64,000 bases of DNA from Ferrovibrio sp. (GTDB taxonomy: Bacteria > Pseudomonadota > Alphaproteobacteria > Ferrovibrionales > Ferrovibrionaceae), in assembly GCF_041906005.1 (NCBI RefSeq), contig NZ_JAYRJY010000003.1, forward strand, positions 3,724 through 67,723. The letters are read 5' to 3'. Positions 3,167 to 21,661 of the stretch are shown here, piece after piece. The notes beneath the pieces are model-generated. The model ran no database searches. It saw only the letters and a list, made by a program, of their open reading frames with translations, and was not told the DNA's origin. Made by a program: the position numbers and the translations under genes. Within the stretch, counting starts at the first letter, position 1. Each line of letters begins with the position of its first letter.

Positions 3167-3178
3167 ACGAGCAAGACC

Positions 3179-3850
3179 ATGCCGAAACCGATTGCCGCCG
3201 ATATTGCCCGCAGCTTGCAGCAGCGCATCGACGCCGGCGAATGGGCCGATGGGCGCCAGGTACCGCCGGAGCGCGACCTCGCCGCCGATTTCGGCGTAGC
3301 CCGGAACACGATCCGCCGCGCAATGGACATGCTGCGCGATCAGGGAACGATTTCGCGCCATGTCGGGCGCGGCACCTTCGTCGCCAACGGCGCCAAGCAT
3401 TCCCTGAGCGAGATCGTTGCCGGCATGGAAGGGGCGAGCCCCGCCGACATGATGGAACTGCGCCTGCTGCTGGAACCCTTGTCGTCGGCCAATGCCGCGA
3501 TCAATGCCAGCGCGGCACAACTCGCCGGCATCGAGGAAGCGCACCGCGAGGCCAATGCCGCCACCGACATCATGACGTTCGAGCAGTGGGATTCAGCCCT
3601 GCACCACCGCATCTTTGCCTGCTCACGCAACGAATTGCTGCGCGGCATCTATGATCTCCTCCATGTCCTGCGCAATCAATCGCCCTGGTTCGACATGAAG
3701 AAGCGCTCCTTTTCGGAGGAGCGGCGGCAGAATTACTGCCAGCAGCACGACGCGATCGTGACGGCGATCCTCAACCGCGATCCGGAAGCGGCGCGCGCGG
3801 CGACGCTGGCGCATCTGAAGACGGTCGAGGCCAACCTGCTGGGGCGTTAG
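3179..3850 (+). CDS. GntR family regulator (FadR/FCD subfamily)
   Basis: wHTH VPPERDLAADFGVARNTIRRA and GRGTFV; FCD domain with DSALHHRI and QHDAIV. Alternative start at 3140. Confidence 0.92.
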   Translation: MPKPIAADIARSLQQRIDAGEWADGRQVPPERDLAADFGVARNTIRRAMDMLRDQGTISRHVGRGTFVANGAKHSLSEIVAGMEGASPADMMELRLLLEPLSSANAAINASAAQLAGIEEAHREANAATDIMTFEQWDSALHHRIFACSRNELLRGIYDLLHVLRNQSPWFDMKKRSFSEERRQNYCQQHDAIVTAILNRDPEAARAATLAHLKTVEANLLGR

Positions 3851-4905
3851 TGCTTCAACATCGCCTGGCGCCAGACGCGCGGGCTCGTCCCGGCCCAGCG
3901 CGTGAAGGCACGGGTGAAGGCGGAAAGCTCGGAATAGCCGAGCAATAAGGCAATCTCGCTCAAGGGCAGCTGGCTTTGCTGCAGATAATGCCGGGCGAGG
4001 TCGAAACGGGTCACTTCGACGGCCTCGCGATAGCCCATGCCGGCATCGGCCAGGGCACGCTGGATCGCATGCGGGCTGAGACGCAGCGTGTGAGCCACCT
4101 GTTCCAGCGTCGGCGCCCCTTCGGCCAGACGCAGCCGCACGGCACCGCGCACCCGGTCTATGAGCGAATCCGGCCGATCGCGGGACCCCAGCGATTCCAG
4201 GCAGGTCTGCATCATGGTGAGGAGTTTGAGGTCGCGGCCCGGCATCGGCCGGCTGAGCAGATCGGCATCGAAGATGATGGCATTGGTGGCGCAGCCGAAG
4301 AAAACCGGCGCGCCGAACGCCATCTCATGCTGCCGCCAATCGGGGGGCCGTGGATGCTCGAACTGGATTTCCAGCGGCGACCAATGCTTGCCGCAACATT
4401 CGCGGATGATGTTGGTGAATTGCCCCAAAGAGAGCTCGGCATCCTGGCGCCGGGCCACAATCGAGGGGGAAATAATCTGATATTCCAGGCGCATGCGCTT
4501 GTCCCCATCGCGCCGCAGCGACATCACGGACGAGCTTTGCTGGAAACGGAACAAGCCGACCAGATTTTCGAGAGCGCTGCCGAGGGTGGGCGAGGACAAG
4601 GAGGCATAGCCCCACATCCCCAGATCGCGCGGGGAGAATTGCTGGCCGAACCAGAGGCCGAAATTGTCACGGCCGGTCTGGCGGGCGGCCTCCTCGAACA
4701 GGGCGCAATAGGCGGCAAGGCGCAATTGCAGGGTCGGGGCCGCGGTCATTTCCGGCGCCAGGCCGCAATTGCCGAAGATGGAATCCACATCCCCGCCCTG
4801 GGCGTCGATGAATTCCACCAGACCGGCGGCGGCGGCGGAGAGCACGACCGGTGCCTTGTCGGCACTGCCCGCGTCTGAATTCGCCCGTCCGCCCAATTGG
4901 ATCAT
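3847..4905 (-). CDS. AraC family activator 1 (long ligand-binding domain, possibly QhpR-like)
   Basis: C-terminal EIALLLGYSELSAFTRAFTRWAGTSP AraC signature; divergent from the dehydratase operon. Confidence 0.9.
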   Translation of the reverse strand: MIQLGGRANSDAGSADKAPVVLSAAAAGLVEFIDAQGGDVDSIFGNCGLAPEMTAAPTLQLRLAAYCALFEEAARQTGRDNFGLWFGQQFSPRDLGMWGYASLSSPTLGSALENLVGLFRFQQSSSVMSLRRDGDKRMRLEYQIISPSIVARRQDAELSLGQFTNIIRECCGKHWSPLEIQFEHPRPPDWRQHEMAFGAPVFFGCATNAIIFDADLLSRPMPGRDLKLLTMMQTCLESLGSRDRPDSLIDRVRGAVRLRLAEGAPTLEQVAHTLRLSPHAIQRALADAGMGYREAVEVTRFDLARHYLQQSQLPLSEIALLLGYSELSAFTRAFTRWAGTSPRVWRQAMLKH

Positions 4906-4948: not shown

Positions 4949-4977
4949 ATGATGGCATGGTGCCAGCCATGCTGCAA
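4949..4977 (-). promoter_or_regulatory. Putative sigma70 promoter of AraC1
   Basis: Minus strand TTGCAG-N17-CATCAT; the block ATGATGGCATGGYGC is also found upstream of AraC2. Confidence 0.4.
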
Positions 4978-5003: not shown

Positions 5004-5059
5004 GCTGTCAAACATGGTGGGTTTTCGGTCAAGCCGGCGGCGGGCCGTGATATTAGCCT
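5004..5059 (+). promoter_or_regulatory. AraC-type tandem site plus -10 element for the dehydratase operon
   Basis: TGTCAA 5006-5011, GGTCAA 5027-5032 (21-bp period) and TAGCCT 5054-5059; same architecture at 9712 and 15925. Confidence 0.7.
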
Positions 5060-5110
5060 GTCCGTAAAATCACAGAAATCTGCCCAAGGAACAGGCTGGG
5101 AGAATAAAGC

Positions 5111-7390
5111 ATGAGCGAGCGCCCGCAACAGAACGCCAATCGCTGGCGGCGCTTTGCCGATTGGGACGAACGGCCTCTGCGCCTCGATCGTTTCGCGGTG
5201 GAGGACCCCGAGAACGGCTTTGCCGCCTTCAAGGGTGCCAAGGACCCCAAGCCCGGCCTGGCCATTGCAGAGGGCAGGGTGGTGTCGATGGACGGCATCC
5301 CGGCGGCCGAATTCGACATGATCGATCATTTCGTCGCTCATCATCATCTCGATCTCGACCTCGCCCCGCAAGCGATGGCGATCCCCTCTGCCGACATCGC
5401 CCGCATGCTGGTCGACATTGCCGTGCCACGGACCGAACTGGCGCGCCTTGCCCATGGCCTCACCCCCGCTAAGCTTGCCGAGGTGGTGGCACAGCTCTCG
5501 GCGATCGAGCTCGCTTTCGCTTTCTCGAAGATGCGCACCCGCAAGACGCCCGGCAATCAGGGCCATGTCACCAATGCCAAGGACGACCCGCTGCAATTGG
5601 CGGCGGATGCCGCGACGGCGGTCGCTTTCGGCTTCGACGAGGTCGAGACGACCATGCGCGTCGCGAGGAATGCCTGGTCGAACGCTCTGGCCTGCGCCGT
5701 GGGTGCCTCGGTCGGCCGTTGGGGCACGCTTTTTCAATGTTCCAGCGAAGAATCCGAGGAATTGCAGATCGGCATGGCGGGCTTCACATCCTATGCCGAG
5801 ACGGTTTCCGTCTATGGGACGGAGCGCGCTTTTACCGACGGCGACGACACGCCCTGGTCGAAAGCGTTCCTGGCCGCTGCCTATGCCAGCCGCGGCATCA
5901 AGATGCGCTGCACGTCAGGGGCCGCATCCGAACTGCTGATGGGATTCCATGAATCGAAGTCCCTCCTTTATCTGGAAGCCCGCTGCCTGTGCCTGCAGCG
6001 TGCCATGGGCGTGCAGGGGACGCAGAATGGCGGCATCGATGGGGCCCCCCTGGCCTCGACCATGCCGGGCGGTGTCCGGGAGCTGATGGCGGAAAATCTC
6101 ATCGCTGTCTGGCTCGACCTCGAATGCGCCACCGGCAATGATGCGCGGCATTCGGAATCGGAAATCCGGGTGGGAGCCAAGATCCTGCCCTTCCTCATCG
6201 CCGGGTCCGATTTCATCTGCTCCGGCATGGGGTCGATCCTCGCCTATGACAATTCCTTCAACCCCTCCTCCTTCAATGGCGAGGAGATGGAGGATTTTCT
6301 GGTGCTGCAGCGCGATTTCGAGGCCGATGGCGGGCTGACCTCGGTCGGCGAATCCCGCGCCCTGGAACTGCGCCGGCGGGCGACCGATGCGCTGGGCGCG
6401 GTGTTCGAGGAGTTGGGCCTTGGCACGCCGAGCGCTGCAATGAAGCGCAGCGTCGTTGTGGCCTCCGGCTCCAACGAGACCGAGAGCTATCTGCCGCGCG
6501 ACGTCACCCTCATCAGCGAGAAAATCAAGGCGCGCGGGATCAACGTGCTCGACGTCATCAAGGCGCTGGCCGTGCGCGGCTTCCGGGAGGAAGCACAGAA
6601 TCTCCTCAATGTCGTGCGCCTGCGGGTGTCGGGCGATTATCTGCAGACGGCGGCGGTGGTACGCCAGGGACATGTCATCAGCGCCGTCAACGATCCCAAC
6701 GACTATGGCGGACCCGGCACCGGCTATCGGCTGAGCGGCCAGCGCCGCCAGGAACTGGCCGCTATCCGCGATGTGCTGACGCGCGAGGAGGTCTTGCGCA
6801 CAGAAGCCACCTTCGCCGGTGCCGAGAACCGGCGCATCCGCTACCGAGCCTTGGGCGATGCGGCAACGAGCGGGCCGAAAAACGAGATCGTCATTGGCGT
6901 CAGCCCAGCCTTCGGTCTGAAGCTCTTCCGGACATTGGCCGGCCATCCGCTTTCCGCCGTGCTGCGGGCGATGAGCGAGGGTATTGCCGAAAAGGGCGGC
7001 GTTGCCCGCATCGTGCGCATGCGACACACGGCCGATACCTCGTTCCTGGGGCTGAGTGCAGCGCGCCTCGCCGGCTCCGGTATCGGCATCGGCATCCAGG
7101 CCAAGGGGACCGCCGTCATCCACCAGGCCGACCGCCTGCCCCATCACAATCTGGAACTGTTCTCCAACGCGCCGATCACGTCGCTTGCGCATTACCGAAA
7201 GCTTGGGCAGAACGCGACCGCTTACGCCAAGGGCGAATTGCCGGAGCCGGTCGTGGTGCCGACCGAGGGCGAGGCCATGGGAGCCCGCTTCCATGCCCAG
7301 GTGGCCCTTATCTATGCGATCGAGACCTCGCTCGCGCAGGACGGCGCCAAGCCTGAGGAAATCGAGATCGCCTTCCTGGAGGTTCAATAA
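5111..7390 (+). CDS. Adenosylcobalamin-dependent diol/glycerol dehydratase, fused large (alpha) and medium (beta) subunits
   Basis: Alpha motifs QGHVTN, FDEVETT, YAETVSVYGTE, FTDGDDTPWSK and SAVNDPNDYGGPGTGYRL; from about residue 575, beta motifs EIVIGVSPAFG, GSGIGIGIQAKGTAVIHQ and NLELFSNAP. Confidence 0.95.
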   Translation: MSERPQQNANRWRRFADWDERPLRLDRFAVEDPENGFAAFKGAKDPKPGLAIAEGRVVSMDGIPAAEFDMIDHFVAHHHLDLDLAPQAMAIPSADIARMLVDIAVPRTELARLAHGLTPAKLAEVVAQLSAIELAFAFSKMRTRKTPGNQGHVTNAKDDPLQLAADAATAVAFGFDEVETTMRVARNAWSNALACAVGASVGRWGTLFQCSSEESEELQIGMAGFTSYAETVSVYGTERAFTDGDDTPWSKAFLAAAYASRGIKMRCTSGAASELLMGFHESKSLLYLEARCLCLQRAMGVQGTQNGGIDGAPLASTMPGGVRELMAENLIAVWLDLECATGNDARHSESEIRVGAKILPFLIAGSDFICSGMGSILAYDNSFNPSSFNGEEMEDFLVLQRDFEADGGLTSVGESRALELRRRATDALGAVFEELGLGTPSAAMKRSVVVASGSNETESYLPRDVTLISEKIKARGINVLDVIKALAVRGFREEAQNLLNVVRLRVSGDYLQTAAVVRQGHVISAVNDPNDYGGPGTGYRLSGQRRQELAAIRDVLTREEVLRTEATFAGAENRRIRYRALGDAATSGPKNEIVIGVSPAFGLKLFRTLAGHPLSAVLRAMSEGIAEKGGVARIVRMRHTADTSFLGLSAARLAGSGIGIGIQAKGTAVIHQADRLPHHNLELFSNAPITSLAHYRKLGQNATAYAKGELPEPVVVPTEGEAMGARFHAQVALIYAIETSLAQDGAKPEEIEIAFLEVQ

Positions 7391-7815
7391 TGGCCCGGAT
7401 CGACGATGTTGCCGATTATCCACTCGCCGAGAACCGGCCCGACCTGGTCAAAACCGCGCGCGGCAAGGCGCTGGAAGAACTCACGCTCGATGCCGTCATG
7501 GCCGGCGAGGTGACATTGGAAGATCTGCGCATCACCCCCCAGGCACTCAAGGACCAGGCGCGCGTGGCAACCCTGGCCGGCCGGCCGACCCTGGGGCGCA
7601 ATTTCGAGCGCGCCGCCGAACTGGTGGCAGTGCCGCAGGAGTTCCTGCTGCAGGTCTACGAACTGCTGCGTCCGGGCCGCGCCAAGACAAAGGCCGATCT
7701 GCTGGATGCCGCCAAGATCTTGCGTACGATCTATAAGGCGGAAAAGATGGCCACCTTTGTTGAGGAAGCAGCGGAAGTTTACGAAAAACGTGGCCTCTTT
7801 ACCTTCCGGTTTTGA
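7390..7815 (+). CDS. pduE: Diol/glycerol dehydratase small (gamma) subunit
   Basis: DYPLAE, DLRITPQAL, NFERAAELVAVP, YELLRPGR and EAAEVY motifs; 141 aa, translationally coupled to the fusion gene. Confidence 0.92.
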   Translation: MARIDDVADYPLAENRPDLVKTARGKALEELTLDAVMAGEVTLEDLRITPQALKDQARVATLAGRPTLGRNFERAAELVAVPQEFLLQVYELLRPGRAKTKADLLDAAKILRTIYKAEKMATFVEEAAEVYEKRGLFTFRF

Positions 7816-7915
7816 ACGACGCTGATGGATATGCGGCCCCCTCTCCGCGTGATATCCTTCTTACGTGCATACTGAACACACATGCACGCATTGGATACAT
7901 GGATGGAGGCATTCG

Positions 7916-8158
7916 ATGATAATATATGAGTTGATTGCCGCGGTTCCTGCGGGACCGGGGCATCCTGGGCACACCGTTCTCGCATTGAAACAAGGATCGC
8001 CTTTCATGGCGGCAAATGTAGGCGACTATTTCGATGTTGCCGATCCAGCCGGTACGCCCAACTATAGAATTACCGCAATCCGTCACGACATCTTCAAAGG
8101 ACCCGGCGGCCCGGATACCCATGTGTGCCGCACCTCGCTTGCACTGGGCATTGTCTAG
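7916..8158 (+). CDS. Small hypothetical protein (80 aa)
   Basis: Strong SD GGAGG 6 nt before ATG 7916; fills an otherwise empty gap; no family recognised. Confidence 0.55.
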   Translation: MIIYELIAAVPAGPGHPGHTVLALKQGSPFMAANVGDYFDVADPAGTPNYRITAIRHDIFKGPGGPDTHVCRTSLALGIV

Positions 8159-8182
8159 TCTTCTCAATTAGCCAAAAGCGAC

Positions 8183-8232
8183 TGCTCAGCATGATCTACA
8201 TTGCCGATCGCCCAAAATGATCATGCTGAGCA
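8183..8232. repeat. Perfect 14-bp inverted repeat
   Basis: TGCTCAGCATGATC 8183-8196 and GATCATGCTGAGCA 8219-8232, 22-nt spacer. Confidence 0.85.
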
Positions 8233-8254
8233 CCGCTCTACTACGAGCAAAGTC

Positions 8255-8950
8255 ATGAACTGGAAGACGCGACACCGATCCTTCTATTACCAAGGCGCGC
8301 CGGAGCCCGACGATCTTGCCTTCAAGCCCGCCGAGACGGCGCTCCTGGTCATCGATGTGCAGAACACCTATCTGGAACGGCCGGAGCGAGCCACGCTCGA
8401 TGCTGCCGGCAAGGCGCATTTCGACGCCTGGACGCCGTTTCACGAACGCATGAACGGCATGGTCATCCCGCGCACGGCGGAACTGCTGCGCCTGGCGCGC
8501 AAGCACGGTATCGAATGCCTGTTTGCGCGCATCGCCTGCCGGACCAAGGATGGCCGCGACCGGTCGTTGAGCCAGAAGATGCCCGGCTGGAACAATCTGC
8601 TGCTGCCCAAGAACGAGCATGCGTCGCAACTGGTGCCGCAACTGGAGCCCCAAGGCGACGAGATTGTCGTCACCAAGACAACCGACAGCGCGCTCACGGG
8701 CACCAACCTGCGCCTAATCCTGCACAATCTGGGCATCAGAAACGTCATCTGCGCCGGCATCTTCACCGACCAATGCGTCTCCTCGACCGTGCGGAGCCTC
8801 GCCGACGAAAGCTTCCAGGTCGTGGTGCTGGAGGATTGCTGCGCCGCCGGCTCAGATACGCTGCACGAACAGGAACTGGCGATCATCAACATGATCTACT
8901 GCCATGTCATGACCGCCGACGAACTCAAAGCGATGATGAAACTCACATGA
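8255..8950 (+). CDS. Isochorismatase-family cysteine hydrolase (amidase)
   Basis: Asp-Lys-Cys triad in VIDVQN, VVTKTT and GIFTDQCV; ATG 8255 preferred over the TTG at 8201. Confidence 0.9.
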   Translation: MNWKTRHRSFYYQGAPEPDDLAFKPAETALLVIDVQNTYLERPERATLDAAGKAHFDAWTPFHERMNGMVIPRTAELLRLARKHGIECLFARIACRTKDGRDRSLSQKMPGWNNLLLPKNEHASQLVPQLEPQGDEIVVTKTTDSALTGTNLRLILHNLGIRNVICAGIFTDQCVSSTVRSLADESFQVVVLEDCCAAGSDTLHEQELAIINMIYCHVMTADELKAMMKLT

Positions 8951-9675
8951 AACGCATCCTGATCATCGTTCCGGAACTGGTGGCCCCGCCGGGTATTCTC
9001 GGCCAGGCGCTGATCGCACAGGGTGTCCATTATGACGCCGTCTTCCCGGTGGCCCGCTTTGCCACCTATTCCCCGATGGACTATCCCGGCTTGCCACAGG
9101 GTCCCGCCAATTATGCCGGTCTGATCGTGCTGGGCGGGCCGATGAGCGCCAAGGATGAGCATCTCTATCCCTTCCTCACCGAGACCATGGCCCTGATACG
9201 GGCCTTCACAGCGGTGGAACGGCCGGTGCTGGGCGTGTGCCTGGGCGCCCAGATCATCGCCCATGCCTTCGGTGGCGAGATCTATCGCATGGGAAAACTG
9301 GAATCCGGTTTCTATCAATTGGCGCTGACGCCGGAAGGACGCAGCGACCCGCTGTTCCGGGACTTTGCCGAGCCGGTAACGGTCTTTGAAAACCATTACG
9401 AAGCGACACGCAACACACCGGGCGCTGTACCGCTGATGACCGGCGGCGCCTGTCCTATCCAGGCTTTCCGCGTCGGCGCCAAGACTTATGGCGTGCAATT
9501 CCATGTCGAGGTCACGATCGACATCGTGCGCGATTGGATCCGGATGTTCGGCGCGGATTTCTGCCGGGATGAGCCAAGATTGCTGACCGATCTCGACCGC
9601 CAGTTCGAGATCCATTTCGGCGACTATGTTCGCGCCTGCGATACGCTCACGCGGAATTGGTTGGCGTTAAGCTGA
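8947..9675 (+). CDS. Class I glutamine amidotransferase-like hydrolase
   Basis: LIVLGGP, GVCLGAQ (Cys) and QFHVE (His-Glu); ATGA-coupled to the upstream gene. The track's start at 8515 is an upstream extension. Confidence 0.9.
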   Translation: MKRILIIVPELVAPPGILGQALIAQGVHYDAVFPVARFATYSPMDYPGLPQGPANYAGLIVLGGPMSAKDEHLYPFLTETMALIRAFTAVERPVLGVCLGAQIIAHAFGGEIYRMGKLESGFYQLALTPEGRSDPLFRDFAEPVTVFENHYEATRNTPGAVPLMTGGACPIQAFRVGAKTYGVQFHVEVTIDIVRDWIRMFGADFCRDEPRLLTDLDRQFEIHFGDYVRACDTLTRNWLALS

Positions 9676-9711
9676 GGCCAGCGCCGACACTGAGGGCCGC
9701 CGGCAATCAAG

Positions 9712-9767
9712 GCTGTCAAGATTAACAGCCTAAATGTCAAGACCGGGTGGTAGGGGCGCCCTATCGT
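9712..9767 (+). promoter_or_regulatory. AraC-type tandem site plus -10 element for the ABC/SDR operon
   Basis: TGTCAA 9714-9719, TGTCAA 9735-9740 and TATCGT 9762-9767. Confidence 0.7.
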
Positions 9768-9928
9768 CCCTAGCGTGACCGACTTTAAGACGACTTGCGG
9801 CAAGCAAGCGACAGAATGAGCACACCACATTCGATGGAGTCCGGCCGGGTTTTGCGGACCGGTGCTCCAGCTTGGTCAACAGGGAAGCGGCACCGGCAAC
9901 AATCGACCGGGCCAACGGAGAGGGACAG

Positions 9929-11092
9929 ATGAGCAGCTTCAAGCAGTCACGTCGCAACTTCATGCAGAATTCGGCCCTGATGGCCGCGGCCTTTGCCACC
10001 AGCGGCGTAGCGGGCCTGCGCTCGGCCTATGCCGATCGCTCCAAGGAACTCAATATCCTGTGTTGGGAAGGCTATAACTCGGCGCAAGTCTTGGATCCAT
10101 TCCGCGAATCCAACGGCGCCACGGTGAAGGCGGAATCGCTCACCAACGACCCCACCATGATCAACCGCCTGCGTGCCGGCGAAACCAATGTCTGGGACCT
10201 GATCAACGTCAACAATCCCTGGGCACGCAAGATCATGTTTCCGGAGAAGCTGATCCAGCCGCTCGACCGGGCCAAAATGGAACCCTATTTCGAGAAGATG
10301 GCCCCCGCCTTCAAGCCGCCCTATGCGTGGGCCATGGACGAAAGTGGCAGCCAGCTCATCGGCATGGCACAGCGCTACGGTCCCTACAGCTTCGTCGTCA
10401 ACACCGACAAAGTGAGCCGCGCCACCGCCGAGGATCAGGGCTGGGATCTGTGGAACGACGCGGGCAATGCCGGCAAGTACGGCGTGCTTGAATCCGATGA
10501 TTGGAACGTCTTCAACCTGTGCTGCATCGCCGGCTTCGATCCCTTCAAGGAGCATACGCCGGAGGAAATCGCCAAGTTCACGGAAACCGCCAAGCGCGTC
10601 TTCAAGGGCGCCAAGGTGGTGGGCGACATCGCGACCATGAACCAGGCCCTTGTCTCGGGCGAGATCGATTTCCACATGACCGGCGGTACCTACTCCGCCT
10701 CGCCAGCCCGCGCCGATGGCGCCGGCAATATCCGCGCCATCACGCCGAAAAAGGGGCCGCTCGCTGGCGGCAAGGGCGGCATTTCCTGGATCGAGATCAC
10801 CTCGGTGGTCAACAATCCAGACGTCTCGCCGCTTGCCGTGCAGTTCCTGGAATATGTCCAAGACCCGAAAGTCGCCCATACGGTCGCTTTCGCCGAGGGC
10901 ACGTTCAACCCGGTGGCCCAGATGGGCAATCCGGATTGCTTCAGTCTCTTCACCAAGGAAGAACTCGATGCGATCCAGTATGACAGCCTGGAAGAGGAAA
11001 TGGCGCGTTCGGTCGAATACGACATTGTGCCGGACTACGACAAGCTGCTCGACATCATGACCGCTGCCAAGCGCGAAGCTTCGGGCGGCTGA
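9929..11092 (+). CDS. PotD/PotF-family ABC substrate-binding protein with Tat signal
   Basis: SRRNFM twin-arginine motif, AYA cleavage site, LNILCWEGY and YGPYSFVVNTD; SD GGAGAGGG before ATG 9929. Confidence 0.85.
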   Translation: MSSFKQSRRNFMQNSALMAAAFATSGVAGLRSAYADRSKELNILCWEGYNSAQVLDPFRESNGATVKAESLTNDPTMINRLRAGETNVWDLINVNNPWARKIMFPEKLIQPLDRAKMEPYFEKMAPAFKPPYAWAMDESGSQLIGMAQRYGPYSFVVNTDKVSRATAEDQGWDLWNDAGNAGKYGVLESDDWNVFNLCCIAGFDPFKEHTPEEIAKFTETAKRVFKGAKVVGDIATMNQALVSGEIDFHMTGGTYSASPARADGAGNIRAITPKKGPLAGGKGGISWIEITSVVNNPDVSPLAVQFLEYVQDPKVAHTVAFAEGTFNPVAQMGNPDCFSLFTKEELDAIQYDSLEEEMARSVEYDIVPDYDKLLDIMTAAKREASGG

Positions 11093-11119
11093 TCAATCGG
11101 CTGCTGCCACCACGACGTC

Positions 11120-11151
11120 GGATCGCCCGGTGCGTAGATGCCGGGCGATCC
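11120..11151 (+). terminator. Stem-loop after the SBP gene (terminator or mRNA-stabilising hairpin)
   Basis: GGATCGCCCGG / CCGGGCGATCC, 11-bp perfect stem. Confidence 0.6.
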
Positions 11152-11198
11152 CGTCTTGATCCCCCTCCATTTCATCACGATCCGGATTCCCAAGGACC

Positions 11199-12266
11199 AT
11201 GAACGGCCGATCGCCCATTCTGCAATTGCGCAATCTGACCAAGACCTTCGGCAACTTCACGGCCGTCAAAGGAATCAGCCTCGACATCTCCGAGGGCGAA
11301 TTCTTCACCATCGTCGGCCCGTCGGGCAGCGGCAAGACAACCTTGCTGCGCATGCTGACGGGCATGGAAAGCGCCACGGGCGGCGACATCTTGCTGCGAG
11401 GCGCCCGCATCAACGATCTGCCCGCCAACAAGCGGCCGACCTGCATGGTGTTCCAGTCGCTGGCCCTCTTCCCACATCGTACCGTCGGGCAGAACATCGA
11501 ATTTTCCCAGAAGATCAAGGGCGTGGCACCCGATAAGCGCAAGACGCGGGCCCTGCAGCTGATGGCGCAGCTGCGCTTGCCGGAAAACTACTACGACAAG
11601 AGTGTCACCAAATGCTCTGGCGGCGAGAGGCAGCGCGTGGCGCTCGCCCGGGCGCTGGCCTATGACCCGGACATCCTGTTCTTCGACGAGCCGTTGTCGG
11701 CCATCGATTACAAGCTGCGGAAAACACTGGAAAAAGAACTCAAGGACATTCACCGCGAAACCGGCAAGACCTTCATCTACATCACCCACAGCCTGGAAGA
11801 GGCGATGGTGATGAGCGACCGCATCGGCGTCATGCGCACGGGGCAATTGGTCCAGGTCGGTTCGCCACAGCAGATCTACAGCGCGCCGGAAACCAAGTTC
11901 GTCTCCGAATTCATCGGGGATGTGAACGTCATGGCCGTAACAGCAAACGGTGCCAGCGGCGTCCATGCTGCGGAGTTCGACGTGGATTTCGTGAGCCAGA
12001 CTGTGCCGGCGGGCTTCACCAATGGGCATCTGGTGGTGCGTCCGGAATCGTTGCGCTTCCTGAGCCATCGGGCCGAGGCGCAGAACTGCCTGGAAGGTCG
12101 CCTCTATAATGAATATGTGCTGGGTTCGCGCATCCAATACCAGGTGCGCGTGGGCGAGCATGTCTTCATCGTCGAAAAACTGCGCCAGCAGCAATTCGGC
12201 GGCAAGCTCGACGACCAGGTCCTCATCGGCTGGGATGCCAAGGACGGCATCCTGGTAACGGATTGA
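11199..12266 (+). CDS. PotA-type ABC ATPase
   Basis: GPSGSGKTT, CSGGERQRVALARA, LFFDEP and TOBE-like C-terminus. Confidence 0.92.
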   Translation: MNGRSPILQLRNLTKTFGNFTAVKGISLDISEGEFFTIVGPSGSGKTTLLRMLTGMESATGGDILLRGARINDLPANKRPTCMVFQSLALFPHRTVGQNIEFSQKIKGVAPDKRKTRALQLMAQLRLPENYYDKSVTKCSGGERQRVALARALAYDPDILFFDEPLSAIDYKLRKTLEKELKDIHRETGKTFIYITHSLEEAMVMSDRIGVMRTGQLVQVGSPQQIYSAPETKFVSEFIGDVNVMAVTANGASGVHAAEFDVDFVSQTVPAGFTNGHLVVRPESLRFLSHRAEAQNCLEGRLYNEYVLGSRIQYQVRVGEHVFIVEKLRQQQFGGKLDDQVLIGWDAKDGILVTD

Positions 12267-12279
12267 GCGGGGCCTCGCC

Positions 12280-13134
12280 ATGACCCTGCTCAAGATTTTC
12301 GGACCGGGTACGCGACATGCTCTGCCGCTGATCCTCTTCCTGCTTATCGGCTTTGCCGCGCCCCTGGCGGCCGTCATCGGCTTCAGTTTCACGCCGGCAC
12401 GAACCTTCTCGATCTGGCAAAGCTGGAGCCTCGACAATTATATCGAGATATTCAATTCGACGAGCTATCTCTCCTTCCTTTGGTCGCTGGGCCTCGCCGC
12501 TGTCACGGTACTGATCCTGGCCCTCATCTGCTATCCGATCGCCTATGGCCTGGCGCGCGTCTTCGGCAAATATTCGACGCTGGTGACGCTGCTCTTCACC
12601 ATTCCGCTGTTCGTCTCGGAAAATGTCCGTCTCTACGGCTGGGTCCTGTTCTTTATCAAGAACGGCGTGCTGCTGGGCACGCTCAAGGCTTGGTTCGGCA
12701 TCGAACCGGATAGCTGGCTTTTCACCAGCGGCATCATCGTTTTCGGCATGGTCTATGTCTATCTGCCGTTCATGCTGTTCCCGATGACGCTCGGCGTCTC
12801 GATGGTGCCGGACCAGACGCGGGACGCCGCCTTCGATCTGGGCGCTACGCGCTGGCAGGTGTTCAAAGAGGTGGAACTGCCGCTTTCCATGCCGGGCATC
12901 ATGATCGGCTTCCTGCTGTCCTTCGTGCTGGCGGTGGGCGCCATCGCCGAAGCCAAGGTACTGGGCGGGCAGCAAATCATACCGATCAGCCATGATATCG
13001 AGATCGCCTTCACCTATGCGCAGAACTGGCCGCTGGGCGCCGCCCTTGCCGTGCTGCTGATGCTGGTGGTGGGCAGCATGGTGCTGTTCGTGCTGCGCCG
13101 CTTCGATCTCGATGCCATTCTGGGGCGGAGATAG
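12280..13134 (+). CDS. PotB-type ABC permease
   Basis: Hydrophobic helices; YVYLPFM and DAAFDLGATRWQVF EAA-loop. Confidence 0.9.
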   Translation: MTLLKIFGPGTRHALPLILFLLIGFAAPLAAVIGFSFTPARTFSIWQSWSLDNYIEIFNSTSYLSFLWSLGLAAVTVLILALICYPIAYGLARVFGKYSTLVTLLFTIPLFVSENVRLYGWVLFFIKNGVLLGTLKAWFGIEPDSWLFTSGIIVFGMVYVYLPFMLFPMTLGVSMVPDQTRDAAFDLGATRWQVFKEVELPLSMPGIMIGFLLSFVLAVGAIAEAKVLGGQQIIPISHDIEIAFTYAQNWPLGAALAVLLMLVVGSMVLFVLRRFDLDAILGRR

Positions 13135-13137
13135 GCG

Positions 13138-13956
13138 ATGGATGGTCTTACCCCCCGCTGGCGGACGTCGCTGATCTGGGCCTGGACGGCGGCGATCGTC
13201 GTCTTCATGTATCTGCCGGGGCTCTGCCTGTTGCTCGCCTCCCTTACATCAAGCCGCTATTTCATCTTCCCCATCAACAAATGGGGTGTCGCTTGGTGGC
13301 AGAAGACTTTCGACTCGCTGGAAATTCATCAGCTTTTCAAGACCTCGATCTCGATTGCGCTGTGCGTCACGGTGATTGCCGTCGTGATCGCGCTCTTCGG
13401 GGCGCTGGCCTTTGCGCGCTATGACTGGAAGGGCCGGTCGATCTATCAGAAAATCGTGTTGCTGCCGATCTTCTTCCCGCAATCGGTCTTGGGGCTGGCG
13501 CTGCTGCTCTGGTTCAACGCCTTGGGCCTCACCATGTCGTGGCAGACGGCGGTCTTTGCGCATCTCGTCTGGATCATCCCCGTCTGCACGCTGGTCATCT
13601 CGATTCAGGTCTATTCCTTCGATCCGGCCTTGGAAGAAGCGGCTTTCGATCTCGGCGCCACGCGCTGGCAGGTGTTCCGCGAAGTGACCTTGCCGGTGCT
13701 GTTCCCCGGCATCTTCTCGGGTGCCCTCTTCGCGTTCCTTCTGAGTTGGGGCAATTTCCCGCTGTCGCTTTACACGACCGGCGCCGACACAACGATTCCG
13801 GAATATCTCTACGCGAAGATGGTTGCCGGCTATACCCCGGGCGTGCCGGTGCTCGGTACCGTTTCGACCTTCGGTGCGGCGACCCTGCTGCTCGCCGGCT
13901 ATGCCATCATCCTGATCCTGCGCCGGCGCCGCGCCAGCGCGCCGTCCGAGACCTGA
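13138..13956 (+). CDS. PotC-type ABC permease
   Basis: EEAAFDLGATRWQVFREVTLP and TIPEYLY. Confidence 0.9.
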   Translation: MDGLTPRWRTSLIWAWTAAIVVFMYLPGLCLLLASLTSSRYFIFPINKWGVAWWQKTFDSLEIHQLFKTSISIALCVTVIAVVIALFGALAFARYDWKGRSIYQKIVLLPIFFPQSVLGLALLLWFNALGLTMSWQTAVFAHLVWIIPVCTLVISIQVYSFDPALEEAAFDLGATRWQVFREVTLPVLFPGIFSGALFAFLLSWGNFPLSLYTTGADTTIPEYLYAKMVAGYTPGVPVLGTVSTFGAATLLLAGYAIILILRRRRASAPSET

Positions 13957-13978
13957 GAGAAAGCGGAGGAAACACGCC

Positions 13979-14761
13979 ATGTTGGGGCAATCAATCCAGG
14001 GGAAATCCGTCATCGTCACCGGCGCCAGCAAGGGCATCGGCAAGGGCATCGCCCGCGTCTTCGCGCGCCACGGTGCCAAGGTGCTGGTGGTGGGACGCGA
14101 CCTCAAATCGGCGGAAGCAACGGCGAAGGATTTCGTCGATTCCGGCTGGACGGCAAGTGGCTTTTCCGCCGACGTTACCAAGCTTGCCGACATGGAGAAG
14201 ATGGCCAAGACAGCAGCGGATCGTTACGGCGGCGTCGATGTGCTCTGCGCCAATGCCGGCGTTTTCCCGCAGGTGAAGATCGAGGATATGTCCCCGGAGA
14301 CCTGGGATGAGGTGCAGGCAACCAATCTCAAGGGCACGTTTCTTTCCGTGAAGGCCTGTATCCCCTACCTCAAGAAATCGGGCGAGGGACGCATCGTCAT
14401 CACCTCTTCTATCACCGGGCCGGTCACCGGCTTTCCCGGCTGGACCCATTACGGCGCTACCAAGGCCGGGCAATTGGGCTTCATGCGCACGGCCTGCATG
14501 GAAGTCGCCAAATATGGGATCACGGTCAATGCCGTGCTGCCGGGCAATGTGATGACCGAAGGCCTCATCGAGCTTGGCGAGGATTATGTGAAGGGCATGG
14601 CCGCGGCCGTGCCGATGGGCAAGCTTGGCAATGTCGAGGATATCGGCCATGCCGCCCTCTTCCTCGCCTCGCGCGAGGCCGGCTACATCACCGGGCAAAC
14701 GATCATCGTCGATGGCGGCCAGATCCTGCCCGAGAGCCAGGACGCGCTGTCGCAGATGTAA
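13979..14761 (+). CDS. SDR oxidoreductase, amino-alcohol (1-amino-2-propanol/aminoacetone) dehydrogenase-like
   Basis: TGASKGIG, NAG and YGATK. The SSITGP-TG-PGW-HYG, VLPGN-TEGL and DGGQILPES segments match my recollection of the RMM aminopropanol dehydrogenase. Confidence 0.75.
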   Translation: MLGQSIQGKSVIVTGASKGIGKGIARVFARHGAKVLVVGRDLKSAEATAKDFVDSGWTASGFSADVTKLADMEKMAKTAADRYGGVDVLCANAGVFPQVKIEDMSPETWDEVQATNLKGTFLSVKACIPYLKKSGEGRIVITSSITGPVTGFPGWTHYGATKAGQLGFMRTACMEVAKYGITVNAVLPGNVMTEGLIELGEDYVKGMAAAVPMGKLGNVEDIGHAALFLASREAGYITGQTIIVDGGQILPESQDALSQM

Positions 14762-14764
14762 AGG

Positions 14765-15832
14765 TCAGTGCCCCTGCTTCCGATAGGCGCGCGGGCTGAC
14801 ACCCGTCCAGCGGGTGAAGGCGCGGGTGAAGGCGGAGAGCTCCGAATAGCCGAGCAGCAGGGCGATCTCGGTCAGCGGTAGCTGGCGCTGATCGAGATAC
14901 ATCTGGGCAAGGCTCTGCCGTGTCGTTTCGACCGCATCCTTATAGGTGAGCCCCTGTTCAGCGAGTTCCCGCTGCACCACAGCGGCCGGCACGCGCAGGG
15001 AATGAGCGATCTGATCGAGGCTGGGGTAGCCGCCGGGCAGGCTCACGCGGATCGCCGTCTTGACCCGGTCGACCATACCGTCGGTCCCCTGCCGATGCGA
15101 ACCCAGAGATTCGAGGCAGGTCTGCATCATGGTCAGAAGCTGCAAATCGCGGCCCGGCATCGACCGCTCGAGGAGTTCGGGACGGAACAGCAGCGCATTG
15201 GTCGGCTGGCTGAAATAGACCGGCGCATCGAAGGCCGCCTCGTGCTCCTTCCAGAATTCCGGGCGCGGATGCTCGAAATGCACCTCGACCGGCGTCCATT
15301 TCGACCCGCAGCAATCGCGGATGACATTGGCGAACATGCCGAGCGAGAGTTCCGCATCCTGCCGGCGCTCGACGATTTCCGAGGAAAAGATCTGGTATTC
15401 GAGCCGCATCAGCCCGTCGGTGCCCTTCACCAGCTGCATCCCTGAGGATTCCTGGTGGTAGTGGAAAAGCCGCACCAGATTTTCGAGAGCCGCCCCCAGA
15501 TTTGGGGATGAGATCGCTGCATAGCCCCACATGCCGAGGTCGCGCGGCTGGAATTGCTGGCCGAAATGCAGACCGAAATTGCCCGGGCTGAACTTGTCGC
15601 CCTGGATCTGCTTGGCCGCTTGCTCGAAGAGGCGGCAATAAGAAGCGAGTTTTAGTTTCAGGGTGGGCGATCCGGCCATATCCGGTGCAATGCCGGAATT
15701 GCCGAAGATCGAATCCACATCACCGCGCTGACGCTCGATGAAGTCCACCAAGCCGGTGGCAGCCGCGGCAAGGACGATCGGTGCCCCGCTTTCGCGCGTC
15801 TCGGTCTTGTGATCCAGCAAAGCGGCAGCCAT
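14765..15832 (-). CDS. AraC family activator 2, paralog of 3847-4905
   Basis: Same C-terminal signature and shared GQQF-PRDLGMWGYA and RRQDAELSLG blocks; start moved to ATG 15832. Confidence 0.9.
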   Translation of the reverse strand: MAAALLDHKTETRESGAPIVLAAAATGLVDFIERQRGDVDSIFGNSGIAPDMAGSPTLKLKLASYCRLFEQAAKQIQGDKFSPGNFGLHFGQQFQPRDLGMWGYAAISSPNLGAALENLVRLFHYHQESSGMQLVKGTDGLMRLEYQIFSSEIVERRQDAELSLGMFANVIRDCCGSKWTPVEVHFEHPRPEFWKEHEAAFDAPVYFSQPTNALLFRPELLERSMPGRDLQLLTMMQTCLESLGSHRQGTDGMVDRVKTAIRVSLPGGYPSLDQIAHSLRVPAAVVQRELAEQGLTYKDAVETTRQSLAQMYLDQRQLPLTEIALLLGYSELSAFTRAFTRWTGVSPRAYRKQGH

Positions 15833-15877
15833 CGGAAATCCCCGGCTAAACGTCACGCACCAGACTGTGGATGCTTG

Positions 15878-15907
15878 ATGATGGCATGGCGCATGGCGCG
15901 GCTTCAA
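15878..15907 (-). promoter_or_regulatory. Putative sigma70 promoter of AraC2
   Basis: Minus strand TTGAAG-N18-CATCAT, same block as at 4949. Confidence 0.4.
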
Positions 15908-15924
15908 GGGTGCAAAGCTGATCA

Positions 15925-15981
15925 GCTGTCAAGATCGCCCCGTCACGGGTCAAGCGAGGCTTGGCGCCCGCACCCTAGCCT
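15925..15981 (+). promoter_or_regulatory. AraC-type tandem site plus -10 element for the microcompartment operon
   Basis: TGTCAA 15927-15932, GGTCAA 15948-15953 and TAGCCT 15976-15981. Confidence 0.7.
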
Positions 15982-16085: not shown

Positions 16086-17084
16086 ATGAGCGGCATGCTC
16101 ACGACAGAACAATTGTTGCGCGCGATCGATGAGCTGGCTGCTGCCGCCTTGCCCCGCTGGGGGTTGGCTGGCGCCGAGCTGAAGCTGATCAATCATTCGG
16201 AAAATTGGACCTATCGCGTGACGCCCCGGGGCACCGCGCGTCCGGTCATCCTGCGCGTGCATCGGGAAGGCTATCACAGCGTCGACGGCATCCGCAGCGA
16301 GCTTGCCTGGATGCGCGCCCTGCAATCGCAAGCGGGTGTGAAGACGCCACAGGCCATTCCCGGCACCGACGGCGCCGATATCCAGACCGTGGCGCATCCG
16401 GCCCTCGCCACGCCGCGCAATTGCGTGCTGTTCGAATTCATCGACGGGACCGAGCCGCCGCAGGACAATCTCATTCCGCCTTTCCGTCAATTGGGCGAGG
16501 TAACGGCGCGCTGCCACAATCACAGCGAAACCTGGACGCGCCCCCCCTATTTCGAGCGCCTTTCCTGGGACTTTGAACATTCCCTGGGGAAGACCGCCAA
16601 TTGGGGTGCCTGGCAGGACGGGCCGGATTGCACGCCGGACCGCGCCCGGCTGTTGCAGCGCGCGGTCGATCTGATGGAGAAGCGGCTGACGGCTTTCGGA
16701 CAGGCCCGGAACCGTTACGGCCTCATCCATGCCGATTTCCGCCTCGCCAACCTGCTTGTTCACAATGGCGATGTGCGCGTCATCGATTTCGACGATTGCG
16801 GCCTCGGCTGGTTTCTCTATGACGCAGCAAGCGCGGTGAGTTTCTTCGAGGACCGCGCCGATGTGCCGGAACTGATGGAAGCCTGGAAGGAAGGCTATCG
16901 CCGCCAGCGCGCGCTGCCGAAGACGGACGATGACGAATTGTGGACCTTCATCCTGCTGCGTCGCATGACGCTCTTTGCCTGGATGGGGAGCCATGCCGAA
17001 ACGGATCTCGCCCGCACCGAGGGCCCCGGTTACAGCACCGGCACCTGCGAACTCGCTGAACGTTATCTGAGCCAATACAGCTGA
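16086..17084 (+). CDS. APH/choline-kinase-fold phosphotransferase, aminopropanol kinase-like
   Basis: SENWTY, ILRVHR, HADFRLANLL (HxDxxxxN) and VIDFDD; microcompartment context. Confidence 0.8.
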   Translation: MSGMLTTEQLLRAIDELAAAALPRWGLAGAELKLINHSENWTYRVTPRGTARPVILRVHREGYHSVDGIRSELAWMRALQSQAGVKTPQAIPGTDGADIQTVAHPALATPRNCVLFEFIDGTEPPQDNLIPPFRQLGEVTARCHNHSETWTRPPYFERLSWDFEHSLGKTANWGAWQDGPDCTPDRARLLQRAVDLMEKRLTAFGQARNRYGLIHADFRLANLLVHNGDVRVIDFDDCGLGWFLYDAASAVSFFEDRADVPELMEAWKEGYRRQRALPKTDDDELWTFILLRRMTLFAWMGSHAETDLARTEGPGYSTGTCELAERYLSQYS

Positions 17085-17108
17085 ACCCCGACGGGTCAGG
17101 AGTTACCG

Positions 17109-18398
17109 ATGGTCGATTACCCAGAGAGTCCCGAGAAGCGCGAGTTCATCGCCAAGTCGAAGCAATTCTGGAATCCAGGCAAGACCCAGGCTTGGCAGGA
17201 TATGGGCGTCGATCTGGTGATCGATCGGCGTGAGGGCTACCTGCTCTGGGACATGGATGGGCGGCGTCTTATTGATCTCCATCTCAACGGTGGCACCTAC
17301 AATATCGGTCATCGGCATCCGGAACTGATCGAGGTGCTCAATCGCGGCATGCAGCGCTTCGACATGGGCAATCACCACTTCCCAAATATGGGCCGCACGG
17401 CCTTGGCCGAGCGGCTGGCGCGCATCTGCGGCGGCGACATGCACTATACCATGTATGCCTCAGGCGGCGCCGAAGCCATCGACATCGCCCTCAAGACCGC
17501 GCGCCACGCCACACAGCGGCGCAAGATCGTCTCGATCATCAATGCCTATCATGGCCATACCGGCCTCGCCGTCGCCGCCGGCGCTGATCGCTTCAAGAAG
17601 ATCTTTCTGTCCGACCAGCCGGAAGATTTCGTGCATGTGCCTTTCAACGATCTCAACGCGATGGAAGATGCGCTGAAAGGCAAAGACGTCGCCTGCCTCA
17701 TCATGGAGACGATTCCCGCGACCTACGGCTTTCCGATGCCGCTGCCCGGCTACCTCACGGAAGTGAAGAAGTTGTGCGAGCGTTATGGCGCACTCTATGT
17801 CGCGGATGAAGTGCAGACGGGCCTGATGCGCTGCGGCGAAATGTGGGGCTATCAGCGCTATGGCATCCAGCCGGACATCATGGTGACCGGCAAGGGCATT
17901 TCCGGCGGTATGTATCCGATCGCCTGCGTCGTGGTGCGCGAGCCCTATGCCGGCTGGCTGAAACAGGACGGTTTTGCCCATATGTCGACCATGGGCGGCG
18001 CCGAGCTCGGCTGCCTGGTTGCCATGAAGACGCTAGAAATCCTCGAACGTCCGATGGTGAAGCCGATGGTCAACTATATCTCCGAGACGTTCCGCAACGG
18101 TCTTCACGAGATCATGCGGCTTTATCCCAGCTTCTTCGTGGGCTTGCGCCAATGTGGCGTCGTCATGGGGCTGGAATTCGATTTCCCCGAGGGCGCCAAA
18201 CCGGTGATGAAGCATCTCTATGAAAACGGCGTCTGGGCGATCTTCTCGACGCTCGATCCGCGCGTGCTGCAATTCAAGCCCGGTGTGTTGATGACCGCCG
18301 ATCTCTGCGCCGAGGTGCTGGAGCGGGTCGAACGCAGCATCGGTCTCGCCTATGCCGAATGCATGGGCAAAGGTCGCAGCGCCCATCGGGCCGCCTGA
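17109..18398 (+). CDS. Class III PLP-dependent enzyme, probably an amino-alcohol O-phosphate phospho-lyase (or aminotransferase)
   Basis: SGGAEA, YHGHT, ADEVQTG and PLP lysine in VTGKGISGG; adjacent to the kinase. Confidence 0.8.
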   Translation: MVDYPESPEKREFIAKSKQFWNPGKTQAWQDMGVDLVIDRREGYLLWDMDGRRLIDLHLNGGTYNIGHRHPELIEVLNRGMQRFDMGNHHFPNMGRTALAERLARICGGDMHYTMYASGGAEAIDIALKTARHATQRRKIVSIINAYHGHTGLAVAAGADRFKKIFLSDQPEDFVHVPFNDLNAMEDALKGKDVACLIMETIPATYGFPMPLPGYLTEVKKLCERYGALYVADEVQTGLMRCGEMWGYQRYGIQPDIMVTGKGISGGMYPIACVVVREPYAGWLKQDGFAHMSTMGGAELGCLVAMKTLEILERPMVKPMVNYISETFRNGLHEIMRLYPSFFVGLRQCGVVMGLEFDFPEGAKPVMKHLYENGVWAIFSTLDPRVLQFKPGVLMTADLCAEVLERVERSIGLAYAECMGKGRSAHRAA

Positions 18399-18411
18399 GG
18401 AGCGCCGCGAT

Positions 18412-20007
18412 ATGACTGCCATCATTGAAGAAATCCTCGCCGGCGACAAACGCGCCACCGGTACCGCCGACCTCATGCTGCAAATGGCGGAATGGGCCGC
18501 GGCGGCCTTTGCGCGCTTCGACCGAGCAAAGGTCGAAAAGATCGCCCGCGCCGCCGCCGATGTCGCCTATGCCCATGCCGGGGAACTCGCCGAAGCGGCG
18601 GTCAAGGAAACCGGCTTCGGTGTCGCCGCCCATAAGAAGATCAAGAACGAACTGACCTCACGCGGTCTTTTCGAGCTCTATTCGAAAGAGGATTTTTGTT
18701 CGGCCAAGATCGATCCTGCGCTGAAGATGGTCGAACTGCCCAAGCCGGCCGGCGTCATTTTCGCCCTGACGCCCTCGACCAACCCGGTCTGCAGCGTCTA
18801 TTACAAGGTGCTGATGGCGCTCTTCACCCGCAACGCCATCATCCTGTCGCCGCACCCGATGGCAAAGGGCTGTTCGGTGAAGGCTGCCAAACTGATGGCC
18901 GAAGCCGCAGAACAGGCCGGTGCACCCACCGGCATCATCCAGATCATCGAGCAGCCAAATCTGCCGCTGATTGACTATGTGATGAAAAGCCCGCGCGTCG
19001 GCGTCATCCTGGCGACCGGCGGCACACCCATGGTGCGCTCGGCCTATAGTTCCGGCAATCCGGCGATCGGCGTCGGTCCCGGCAATGCGCCGGTCCTGGT
19101 TGACGACAGCGCCGACCTCAATGAAGTGGCCAAGCGTATCGTCATGTCGAAGGCATTCGACAATTCGATCCTCTGTACGAATGAAAGCGTCGTCGTTGCG
19201 ATCGATAGCATCGCCGACCGGCTGCTGCAATCCTTGAAATCGGCGAGCGCCTATATCGCGAAGCCCGAGGAAGTCGTGGCCTTGCGCGACTTGCTGTTCG
19301 GCCTGGGCTCGTTCAACACGGCCGTCCTGGGCAAGTCTGCGGTCGAAATCGGCGCGCAGGCTGGCATTCGCCTACCTTCGAATACGCAGATCATTGTCGC
19401 CGAAATCGACCGCGTCGGGATCGACGAGCCGCTTTCCAAGGAAAAGCTCTGCCCTGTGCTGGGCTTCTTGCGAGTGCCGCATGCCGATGCCGGCATTACC
19501 CAGGCCCGCGCGCTCATCCGCCTGTCAGGTGCCGGTCATTCCGCTGCCATCCACAGCCGCCATGCACCGACCATCCTGAAATATGGCGCGGCGGTGAAGG
19601 CTTTGCGCGTCGCCGTCAACGCGCCATGCAGCCTGGGTGCCGCCGGCTATGGCACGCATCTGGCACCGGCCTTCACCATCGGCACCGGCTTCTTCGGGTC
19701 CTCCTCGATCGGCGAGAATGTGGGACCGCAACACCTCATCAACTGGACACGGATCGCCTATAACGACGATCCCAAGGAAGTGTTCGGCGATTTCAGCGGA
19801 CTCGACGCCAATGCCGGCGGCCCCGCTCTGGCACTGGGTCTGGAGGCGCCGATTTCACTGGGTCGCCTGCAGGAAGGGGCCGATGCGGCGCAGGATCCCC
19901 TGCCCTTGCCTCTTTCCAACAGTGGATCGACCGACGAGGTCGCCATCTTGCGCGAAGAAATCCGGCGCATGGTCCTTGAAGAACTGCGCGGGGCGCTCCG
20001 GTCATGA
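18412..20007 (+). CDS. CoA-acylating aldehyde dehydrogenase (EutE/PduP family) with C-terminal encapsulation peptide
   Basis: TPSTNP, ATGG, AYSSGNPAIGVGPGN, FDNSILC (catalytic Cys) and EKLCPVL; tail DEVAILREEIRRMVLEELRG; ATG 18412 with SD GAGGAG. Confidence 0.9.
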   Translation: MTAIIEEILAGDKRATGTADLMLQMAEWAAAAFARFDRAKVEKIARAAADVAYAHAGELAEAAVKETGFGVAAHKKIKNELTSRGLFELYSKEDFCSAKIDPALKMVELPKPAGVIFALTPSTNPVCSVYYKVLMALFTRNAIILSPHPMAKGCSVKAAKLMAEAAEQAGAPTGIIQIIEQPNLPLIDYVMKSPRVGVILATGGTPMVRSAYSSGNPAIGVGPGNAPVLVDDSADLNEVAKRIVMSKAFDNSILCTNESVVVAIDSIADRLLQSLKSASAYIAKPEEVVALRDLLFGLGSFNTAVLGKSAVEIGAQAGIRLPSNTQIIVAEIDRVGIDEPLSKEKLCPVLGFLRVPHADAGITQARALIRLSGAGHSAAIHSRHAPTILKYGAAVKALRVAVNAPCSLGAAGYGTHLAPAFTIGTGFFGSSSIGENVGPQHLINWTRIAYNDDPKEVFGDFSGLDANAGGPALALGLEAPISLGRLQEGADAAQDPLPLPLSNSGSTDEVAILREEIRRMVLEELRGALRS

Positions 20008-20025
20008 GAAGGCAGCACTGATATC

Positions 20026-21298: not shown

Positions 21299-21327
21299 CC
21301 AACACTGTTGAAAGCAAGGAGAGAACC

Positions 21328-21609: not shown

Positions 21610-21628
21610 CTGATCGACGCAAGCTTGA

Positions 21629-21661
21629 CCGTCATGCCCCGACTGAGTGCGGGCATGACGG
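21629..21661 (+). repeat. REP-like GC-rich hairpin between BMC-H and the last BMC-T gene
   Basis: CCGTCATGCCC / GGGCATGACGG, 11-bp stem with no U-tract. Confidence 0.75.

Follow-up and report, generated by a model that had tools for sequence, protein, structure and literature searches.

A direct repeat of 28 bp, TGTCAA-N15-KGTCAAG (K being G or T), precedes three operons in a 64,000-nucleotide stretch of the genome of Ferrovibrio sp. (contig NZ_JAYRJY010000003.1, positions 3,724 to 67,723; hereafter the window, whose own numbering is used below). These operons encode a B12-dependent diol/glycerol dehydratase, a PotD-like ATP-binding cassette (ABC) importer with a short-chain dehydrogenase/reductase (SDR), and the kinase, lyase, aldehyde dehydrogenase (AldDH) and shell proteins of a bacterial microcompartment (BMC). 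Since the repeat is unique in the genome, conserved, linked to a regulator and arranged in a way that fits class II geometry, we read it as the operator of two AraC/XylS-type proteins encoded beside it, AraC1 and AraC2, and one or both of them most probably activate the three operons through it. The original prediction had proposed the same operator and a single regulon. It is supported here by co-occurrence with one clade of AraC proteins, by confinement of the motif within the genome and by a geometry that fits class II activation.

When the window was re-read, the boxes were found exactly where they had been reported, at 5006/5027, 9714/9735 and 15927/15948 on the forward strand, with a period of 21 bp at each site. 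Site 1 (TGTCAA-N15-GGTCAAG, 5006..5033) lies upstream of the dehydratase operon, site 2 (TGTCAA-N15-TGTCAAG, 9714..9741) upstream of the importer/SDR operon and site 3 (TGTCAA-N15-GGTCAAG, 15927..15954) upstream of the microcompartment operon. The -10-like hexamers also start at the claimed distances of 21, 21 and 22 nt past box 2. These putative elements, all on the forward strand, are TAGCCT for the dehydratase promoter (5054..5059), TATCGT for the transporter promoter (9762..9767) and TAGCCT for the microcompartment promoter (15976..15981), with transcription start sites predicted near 5066, 9774 and 15988, respectively. If TAnnnT is taken as positions -12 to -7, box 2 falls at about -39 to -33 and box 1 at about -60 to -55, the box centres being near -36 and -57 relative to the predicted start. 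The hexamers found 17 bp upstream of the three -10 elements (AAGCCG, AAGACC and AAGCGA) are poor -35 sequences, and a consensus scan found no complete sigma-70 promoter at the three operator sites. A GTCAAG at 16010 was considered as an additional site and rejected, for it lies 61 nt from box 2, out of phase with it, and lacks conservation.

The pattern TGTCAA-N15-KGTCAA, with one mismatch allowed, matched the window three times against 0.29 expected. Over both strands of the 4.09-Mb genome the three window sites were the only matches and a reversed-pattern control gave 0, while 39 other genomes of the same GTDB family contained about 0.4 scattered matches each. A position weight matrix was then built from 29 orthologous sites of the first 11 loci described below, window sites excluded. 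It scored site 2 at 42.5 bits, site 3 at 38.4 and site 1 at 33.8, and the next best genomic position reached only 17.1, so that the regulon appears to be limited to these three promoters. The genome-wide scan for further members, suggested with the original prediction, thus returned none by either pattern or matrix. With only three genomic copies, a chance or repeat-element origin of the motif was ruled out.

Related loci were collected by a genome-collection scan with AraC2, which gave 11 loci from Dongia and Rhodospirillales metagenome-assembled genomes (AraC2 identity 60-94%), and from a class-wide sample of 401 genomes, which added four further genomes with the locus. The comparison set consists of these 15 related loci and the window; the substrate-binding protein (SBP) and dehydratase promoters of G075, G251, G377 and G379 were left out. 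The repeat stands ahead of the same operons in the 15 related loci, giving 40 sites in 16 loci when the window is included, and it is kept in 12 loci at site 1, 11 at site 2 and 15 at site 3. Conservation in orthologous loci, on which the prediction had been made to depend, was observed throughout, every covered dehydratase, transporter and kinase/microcompartment promoter having a repeat oriented with its operon. Both the 21-bp period of the directly repeated half-sites and the G after box 2 were found in 40/40 sites; the boxes and this trailing G are invariant, and the spacer positions carry about 0-1 bit each. The hexamer TAnnnT, mostly with a C before it, occurs 21-22 nt past box 2 in 37 of 39 sites. 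Two details of the proposed consensus had to be relaxed. The GC reported before box 1 is present at all three window sites and proved a mere preference across orthologues (G 21/32, C 23/32), and the first base of box 2, G or T in the window as stated, is G, T or once A in orthologues. The A belongs to the dehydratase promoter of one locus (L023), the sole apparent exception with TGTCAA-N15-AGTCAAG, and box 2 is therefore better written nGTCAAG. Unbiased counts of 6-mers and of spaced 5-mer dyads in 32 upstream regions ranked TGTCAA, GTCAAG and GTCAA-(21)-GTCAA first (31/32).

Two of the loci are informative for their gene arrangement. In L032 (CBDDCC010000003.1), which has an AraC of 60% identity, the gene order is rearranged: SBP, AldDH-shell and lyase-kinase form separate units, with lyase-kinase on the opposite strand, and each of the three units has its own copy of the operator, oriented with the operon. 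L032 encodes one AraC and no dehydratase beside its three operators, and L030 (SSEL01000051.1) retains the dehydratase operator with no AraC1 gene in the 1.26 kb upstream. Judging from these two arrangements, one regulator evidently suffices for several operators.

Both regulators are encoded on the minus strand, AraC1 (3847..4905) divergently from the dehydratase operon and its paralogue AraC2 (14765..15832; 63% identical) divergently from the microcompartment operon. They share an N-terminal VirS/CdpR-type sensor/dimerisation domain (PF12625; E 2.8e-48 and 2.5e-45) and a C-terminal double helix-turn-helix (HTH; PF12833 and PF00165 matches), and their relatives in the PDB are VirS 8rcx and 5chh. 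Both exceed the 250-bit cut-off of the NCBIfam model for QhpR (NF049968), with 332.8 bits for AraC1 and 300.3 for AraC2. No qhp genes were found beside either gene, the neighbours being dehydratase, ABC importer and microcompartment genes, and the two proteins are therefore described here as QhpR-like paralogues and not as QhpR. The longest open reading frame (ORF) of AraC2 begins at TTG 15907; all orthologues align from ATG 15832 (355 aa), which is probably the real start. The 25 codons added by the TTG start overlap the predicted araC2 promoter and are probably untranslated. Probable promoters of constitutive type were located on the minus strand for araC1 (TTGCAG-N17-CATCAT, 4949..4977) and araC2 (TTGAAG-N18-CATCAT, 15878..15907). 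The araC2 promoter is partly conserved, and at the araC1 promoter ATGCTGCAAGGCA is kept in every case of an adjacent AraC1 and absent from L030, which has no AraC1. Sites 1 and 3 resemble each other beyond the boxes too (GATGGCATGG, CAAGG), and this extra likeness is best explained by the minus-strand araC promoters. In a FastTree phylogeny, computed with no support values, the lone regulators of L032 and L043 diverge earlier than AraC1 and AraC2 do from each other, and both loci already have the motif; on this tree the operator would therefore be older than the duplication and would have been inherited by both paralogues.

The motif accompanied QhpR-like AraC orthologues with 57% identity or more and was not found within 1.5 kb of QhpR-like relatives of 49% identity or less, which ruled out a motif common to the whole QhpR family. 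Several of these more distant relatives show different direct repeats, with a period of 20-21 bp, in the divergent region. The best-scoring QhpR-like gene (L033, G132:C69) has TGTCCGGAA-N12-TGTCCGGAA, of 21-bp period, upstream of a divergent gene for a flavin adenine dinucleotide-binding protein, and this repeat may be the operator of a true QhpR-type regulator. Other direct repeats of 20-21-bp period occur in L045 and L053. Such repeats beside relatives suggest that the operator architecture is family-wide and the boxes clade-specific. In the first HTH, the motif-bearing clade has xxA(I/V)QRxL as its recognition helix and the other relatives have RTLQRRL; the second HTH is generic. A QhpR operator was sought in the literature, and nothing relevant was found in the literature searched.

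Homologous target genes also occur on two plasmids. The Agrobacterium fabrum C58 pAt locus (L063) combines kinase-lyase, a FabG-like SDR, a PotD-type ABC importer and isochorismatase with a DeoR regulator. On the Shinella zoogloeoides plasmid NZ_CP132313.1 (L064) the fused dehydratase, its small subunit, an SDR, a phosphotransferase and the aminotransferase-like enzyme are encoded in a single cluster, all in the same direction; a GntR gene accompanies them, and shell genes are absent. Homologous targets occur in both loci, but no AraC gene and no copy of the motif was found in them. They represent the same pathway without a shell, and they speak for dehydratase and kinase/lyase being functionally linked. 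A plasmid search for the whole locus yielded partial homologues only, at 75% DNA identity.

AraC/XylS activators bind direct repeats about two helical turns apart, the proximal site overlapping -35. Binding itself, an activating and not a repressing effect, the start points of transcription, the nature of the inducer and the part played by each paralogue are inferred, and we propose the following course of events. A regulator dimer would bind both boxes on the same face of the DNA, 21 bp or two helical turns apart, with the proximal box abutting or overlapping the place of the -35, where the promoters have no recognisable -35 element. Once it has bound the inducer, the regulator would bring sigma-70 RNA polymerase to the -10, the conserved CTAnnnT. 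The inducer is probably an amino alcohol or a related amine taken up by the PotD-like importer, and its arrival would switch on the B12 dehydratase, importer/SDR and kinase-lyase-AldDH-shell operons jointly. Several points weigh against this reading. Just about 7-9 bp are conserved per half-site, fewer than the roughly 17 bp normally contacted by an AraC monomer through its two HTH motifs. As predicted -10 elements, TAGCCT and TATCGT are weak. The spacers have features specific to a promoter class, namely TTTC ahead of box 2 at the dehydratase promoter and GAT following box 1 at the other two, and such features may mean that the paralogues are not interchangeable. Since a search between operons 1 and 2 showed no terminator-like site, the independence of the three units may be incomplete.

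A more elaborate version, which we put forward tentatively and consider rather doubtful, is that AraC1 and AraC2 share one inherited operator core, answer different inducers and converge on the three promoters, making the locus a two-input, bifunctional RMM-type microcompartment. AraC1 would then respond to, for example, a vicinal diol or amino-diol and AraC2 to, for example, an amino alcohol, and convergence might proceed via heterodimers or via class-specific differences in the spacer and at the K position. If this were true, the B12 dehydratase and the kinase/phospho-lyase routes would both supply propionaldehyde to one shell.

Other explanations of the repeat were weighed against activation by the local AraC proteins. 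These proteins could bind the boxes and repress, or act dually by occlusion at -35, induction then being de-repression. The proximal box does cover the -35 position, from which it could exclude polymerase, and some AraC-family members repress; yet we consider this unlikely, because none of the three promoters has a usable -35 (AAGCCG, AAGACC, AAGCGA), so that they should be weak without an activator, and because the direct-repeat class II geometry matches known activators (AraC at I1-I2, XylS at Pm, ArgR). It is more improbable still that another regulator, unlinked or neighbouring, binds the repeat and that the AraC proteins act elsewhere. The nearest such regulator, a GntR/FCD protein (3140-3850), is encoded by a gene that abuts AraC1, and actinobacterial RMM loci are reported to be under GntR control (PMC4207490). 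However, its gene has no counterpart in any orthologous locus, whereas every one of these loci has the motif and an AraC gene, and this lack of conservation of the GntR gene ruled it out as the binder. In addition, loci with homologous enzymes under GntR or DeoR do not carry the motif, and operators of the GntR/FadR type are typically palindromes, not 21-bp direct repeats.

Site 2, which sits in a 196-bp gap before the importer/SDR operon with no divergent gene, bears on the two remaining possibilities. It speaks against the first, a very improbable one, in which the boxes are core promoter elements, either a minus-strand TTGACA -35 for the araC genes or the site of an alternative sigma factor. 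That idea draws on the reverse complement of TGTCAAG, CTTGACA, which resembles the sigma-70 -35 consensus TTGACA, and on the position of sites 1 and 3 in divergent intergenic regions. But both boxes always point with the downstream operon, even in the rearranged L032, the -10 lies 21-22 nt beyond box 2, farther than a -35/-10 pair allows, and separate, better araC promoters exist (TTGCAG-N17-CATCAT). On the minus strand no -10-like hexamer follows either box after 16-18 nt (CCTTGC and CCTTGA being found there), and this absence of a -10 partner, with that of a divergent gene at site 2, ruled out the minus-strand -35. Site 2 is likewise not adjacent to an araC gene, contrary to what would be expected if the boxes were a relic without function, left by the duplication from which the promoter modules of AraC1 and AraC2 arose. 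Although the regulators are paralogous and sites 1 and 3 are alike outside the boxes, such a relic is scarcely credible, for the motif predates the duplication and the boxes stay invariant where spacers and flanks have diverged beyond alignment.

An operator for AraC1 and AraC2 would be of a known general type. Class II AraC/XylS operators include those of AraC at araBAD (I1-I2) and of XylS at Pm (TGCA-N6-GGNTA repeats). As in these systems, two direct repeats of 21-bp period are found here, with a regulator gene adjacent and divergent; the proximal repeat is predicted to touch a poor -35. The window differs from them by its KGTCAAG boxes, by the short conserved stretch of about 7-9 bp per half-site and by having two paralogous regulators and three promoters, known so far from their sequence. 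The ARG box of ArgR, an AraC/XylS protein of P. aeruginosa, consists of TGTCGC-N6-GNAA in tandem with a 5-bp gap (PMC10963909). It shares with the present sites the 21-bp period, the direct tandem order and boxes starting with TGTC, but the window sites have no GNAA sub-box and the effector class differs. The window regulators pass the cut-off for QhpR (NF049968), the AraC-like protein that controls the genes of quinohemoprotein amine dehydrogenase, and may plausibly respond to an amine-type inducer; unlike QhpR, however, they have no nearby qhp genes, and the best-scoring QhpR-like relatives lack the present motif and carry other repeats. AraC-family control of a catabolic microcompartment with a B12-dependent enzyme also has precedents. 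EutR is the AraC-family activator of the enterobacterial eut microcompartment operon, and no model for EutR gave a match to the window AraC proteins. PocR activates the pdu microcompartment operon of enterobacteria (PMC4207490); AraC1 and AraC2 match it only in the HTH region (E 1e-8), far below the cut-off. Both the sensor domain and the operator of the window system differ from those of PocR and EutR.

The first operon (5111..9675, forward strand) encodes the B12 diol/glycerol dehydratase as a fused large and medium subunit (5111-7390) and a small subunit (7390-7815), with domains PF02286, PF02288 and PF02287 across 5111-7815, followed by small ORFs and a class I glutamine amidotransferase-like protein (8515-9675). 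The second (9872..14761, forward) comprises a PotD-like binding protein, an ABC ATPase, two permeases and the SDR. The third (16086..22339, forward) encodes a kinase of aminoglycoside phosphotransferase (APH) type, a class III aminotransferase-like enzyme, an acylating AldDH, a BMC-T protein, orf140, BMC-P, BMC-H and a second BMC-T-like protein, recognised only as a paralogue of the first. By Pfam and NCBIfam matches the core of an RMM2/AAUM2-type microcompartment is present (kinase, aminotransferase-like enzyme, AldDH, BMC-H, BMC-P, tandem-domain BMC-T and SDR).

In agreement with the RMM2/AAUM2 loci described in Proteobacteria (PMC4207490; PMC8217296), the window combines kinase, aminotransferase-like enzyme, AldDH, BMC-T/P/H/T, SDR and a nearby diol dehydratase. 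Axen and colleagues left open whether RMM2 uses the neighbouring diol dehydratase (Axen 2014, PMC4207490), and the dehydratase was later judged unlikely to be part of the RMM2/AAUM2 locus (Sutter 2021, PMC8217296). Diol dehydratase genes were present in 12 of the 13 loci with the region covered, in line with Axen's original definition of RMM2. Actinobacterial loci have been described with a GntR regulator. In the window, in contrast to the later judgement, the dehydratase operon shares the operator of the shell operon. The genome-unique operator common to the dehydratase, importer and shell operons, and the single Shinella operon with dehydratase, kinase and lyase, argue for a single pathway, and the shared operator argues that in this clade the diol dehydratase belongs to the RMM2-type microcompartment regulon. 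Regulation had previously been discussed only for actinobacterial loci, with GntR, and the present data provide a testable map of cis-element and regulators for the alphaproteobacterial RMM2/AAUM2 type. As a regulon prediction this is conventional, and its value lies in the clean definition of a regulon for a proteobacterial RMM2-type microcompartment. The compact 28-bp operator, together with the pair of sensors, could also serve as an inducible expression module.

The locus may be a recent arrival. The 82-kb contig that holds it (C12, of which the window is 3724-67723) has 61.4% GC against 63.9% for the main replicon. Of the 39 other genomes in the GTDB family, 37 gave no match to the kinase, and hence none to the locus, and in the remaining two (G038, G039) the matches are just 44-45% identical. 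In a genome of a different family (G251) the protein identities are 99% for AraC2 and 95% for the kinase. Taken together, GC content, patchy distribution and the identity to G251 suggest recent horizontal transfer, a plasmid or island, or a binning problem.

Finally, the predicted transcript leaders showed some conserved structure, with no Rfam match to a riboswitch or other known RNA. The transporter leader (9762-9808) is highly conserved and contains two -10-like hexamers, TATCGT at 9762 and TAGCGT at 9773, and a hairpin CTTGC-GGCAA-GCAAG (9794-9808) with compensatory changes in L029 (CGTGC/GCACG) and L031 (CTCGC/GCGAG). The kinase leader of about 100 nt (15988-16085) has a conserved GGATGGAAA and, at the ribosome-binding site, a conserved CATCTGGGAGC. 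Two hairpins can form in it, GCCGC...GCGGC at 16004-16019, for which L026 and L027 show compensatory changes, and another with a GTTAAC loop. RNAalifold paired GGATGG with CCATCT in this leader, the covariation being weak. The kinase leader may constitute a second, post-transcriptional layer of control.

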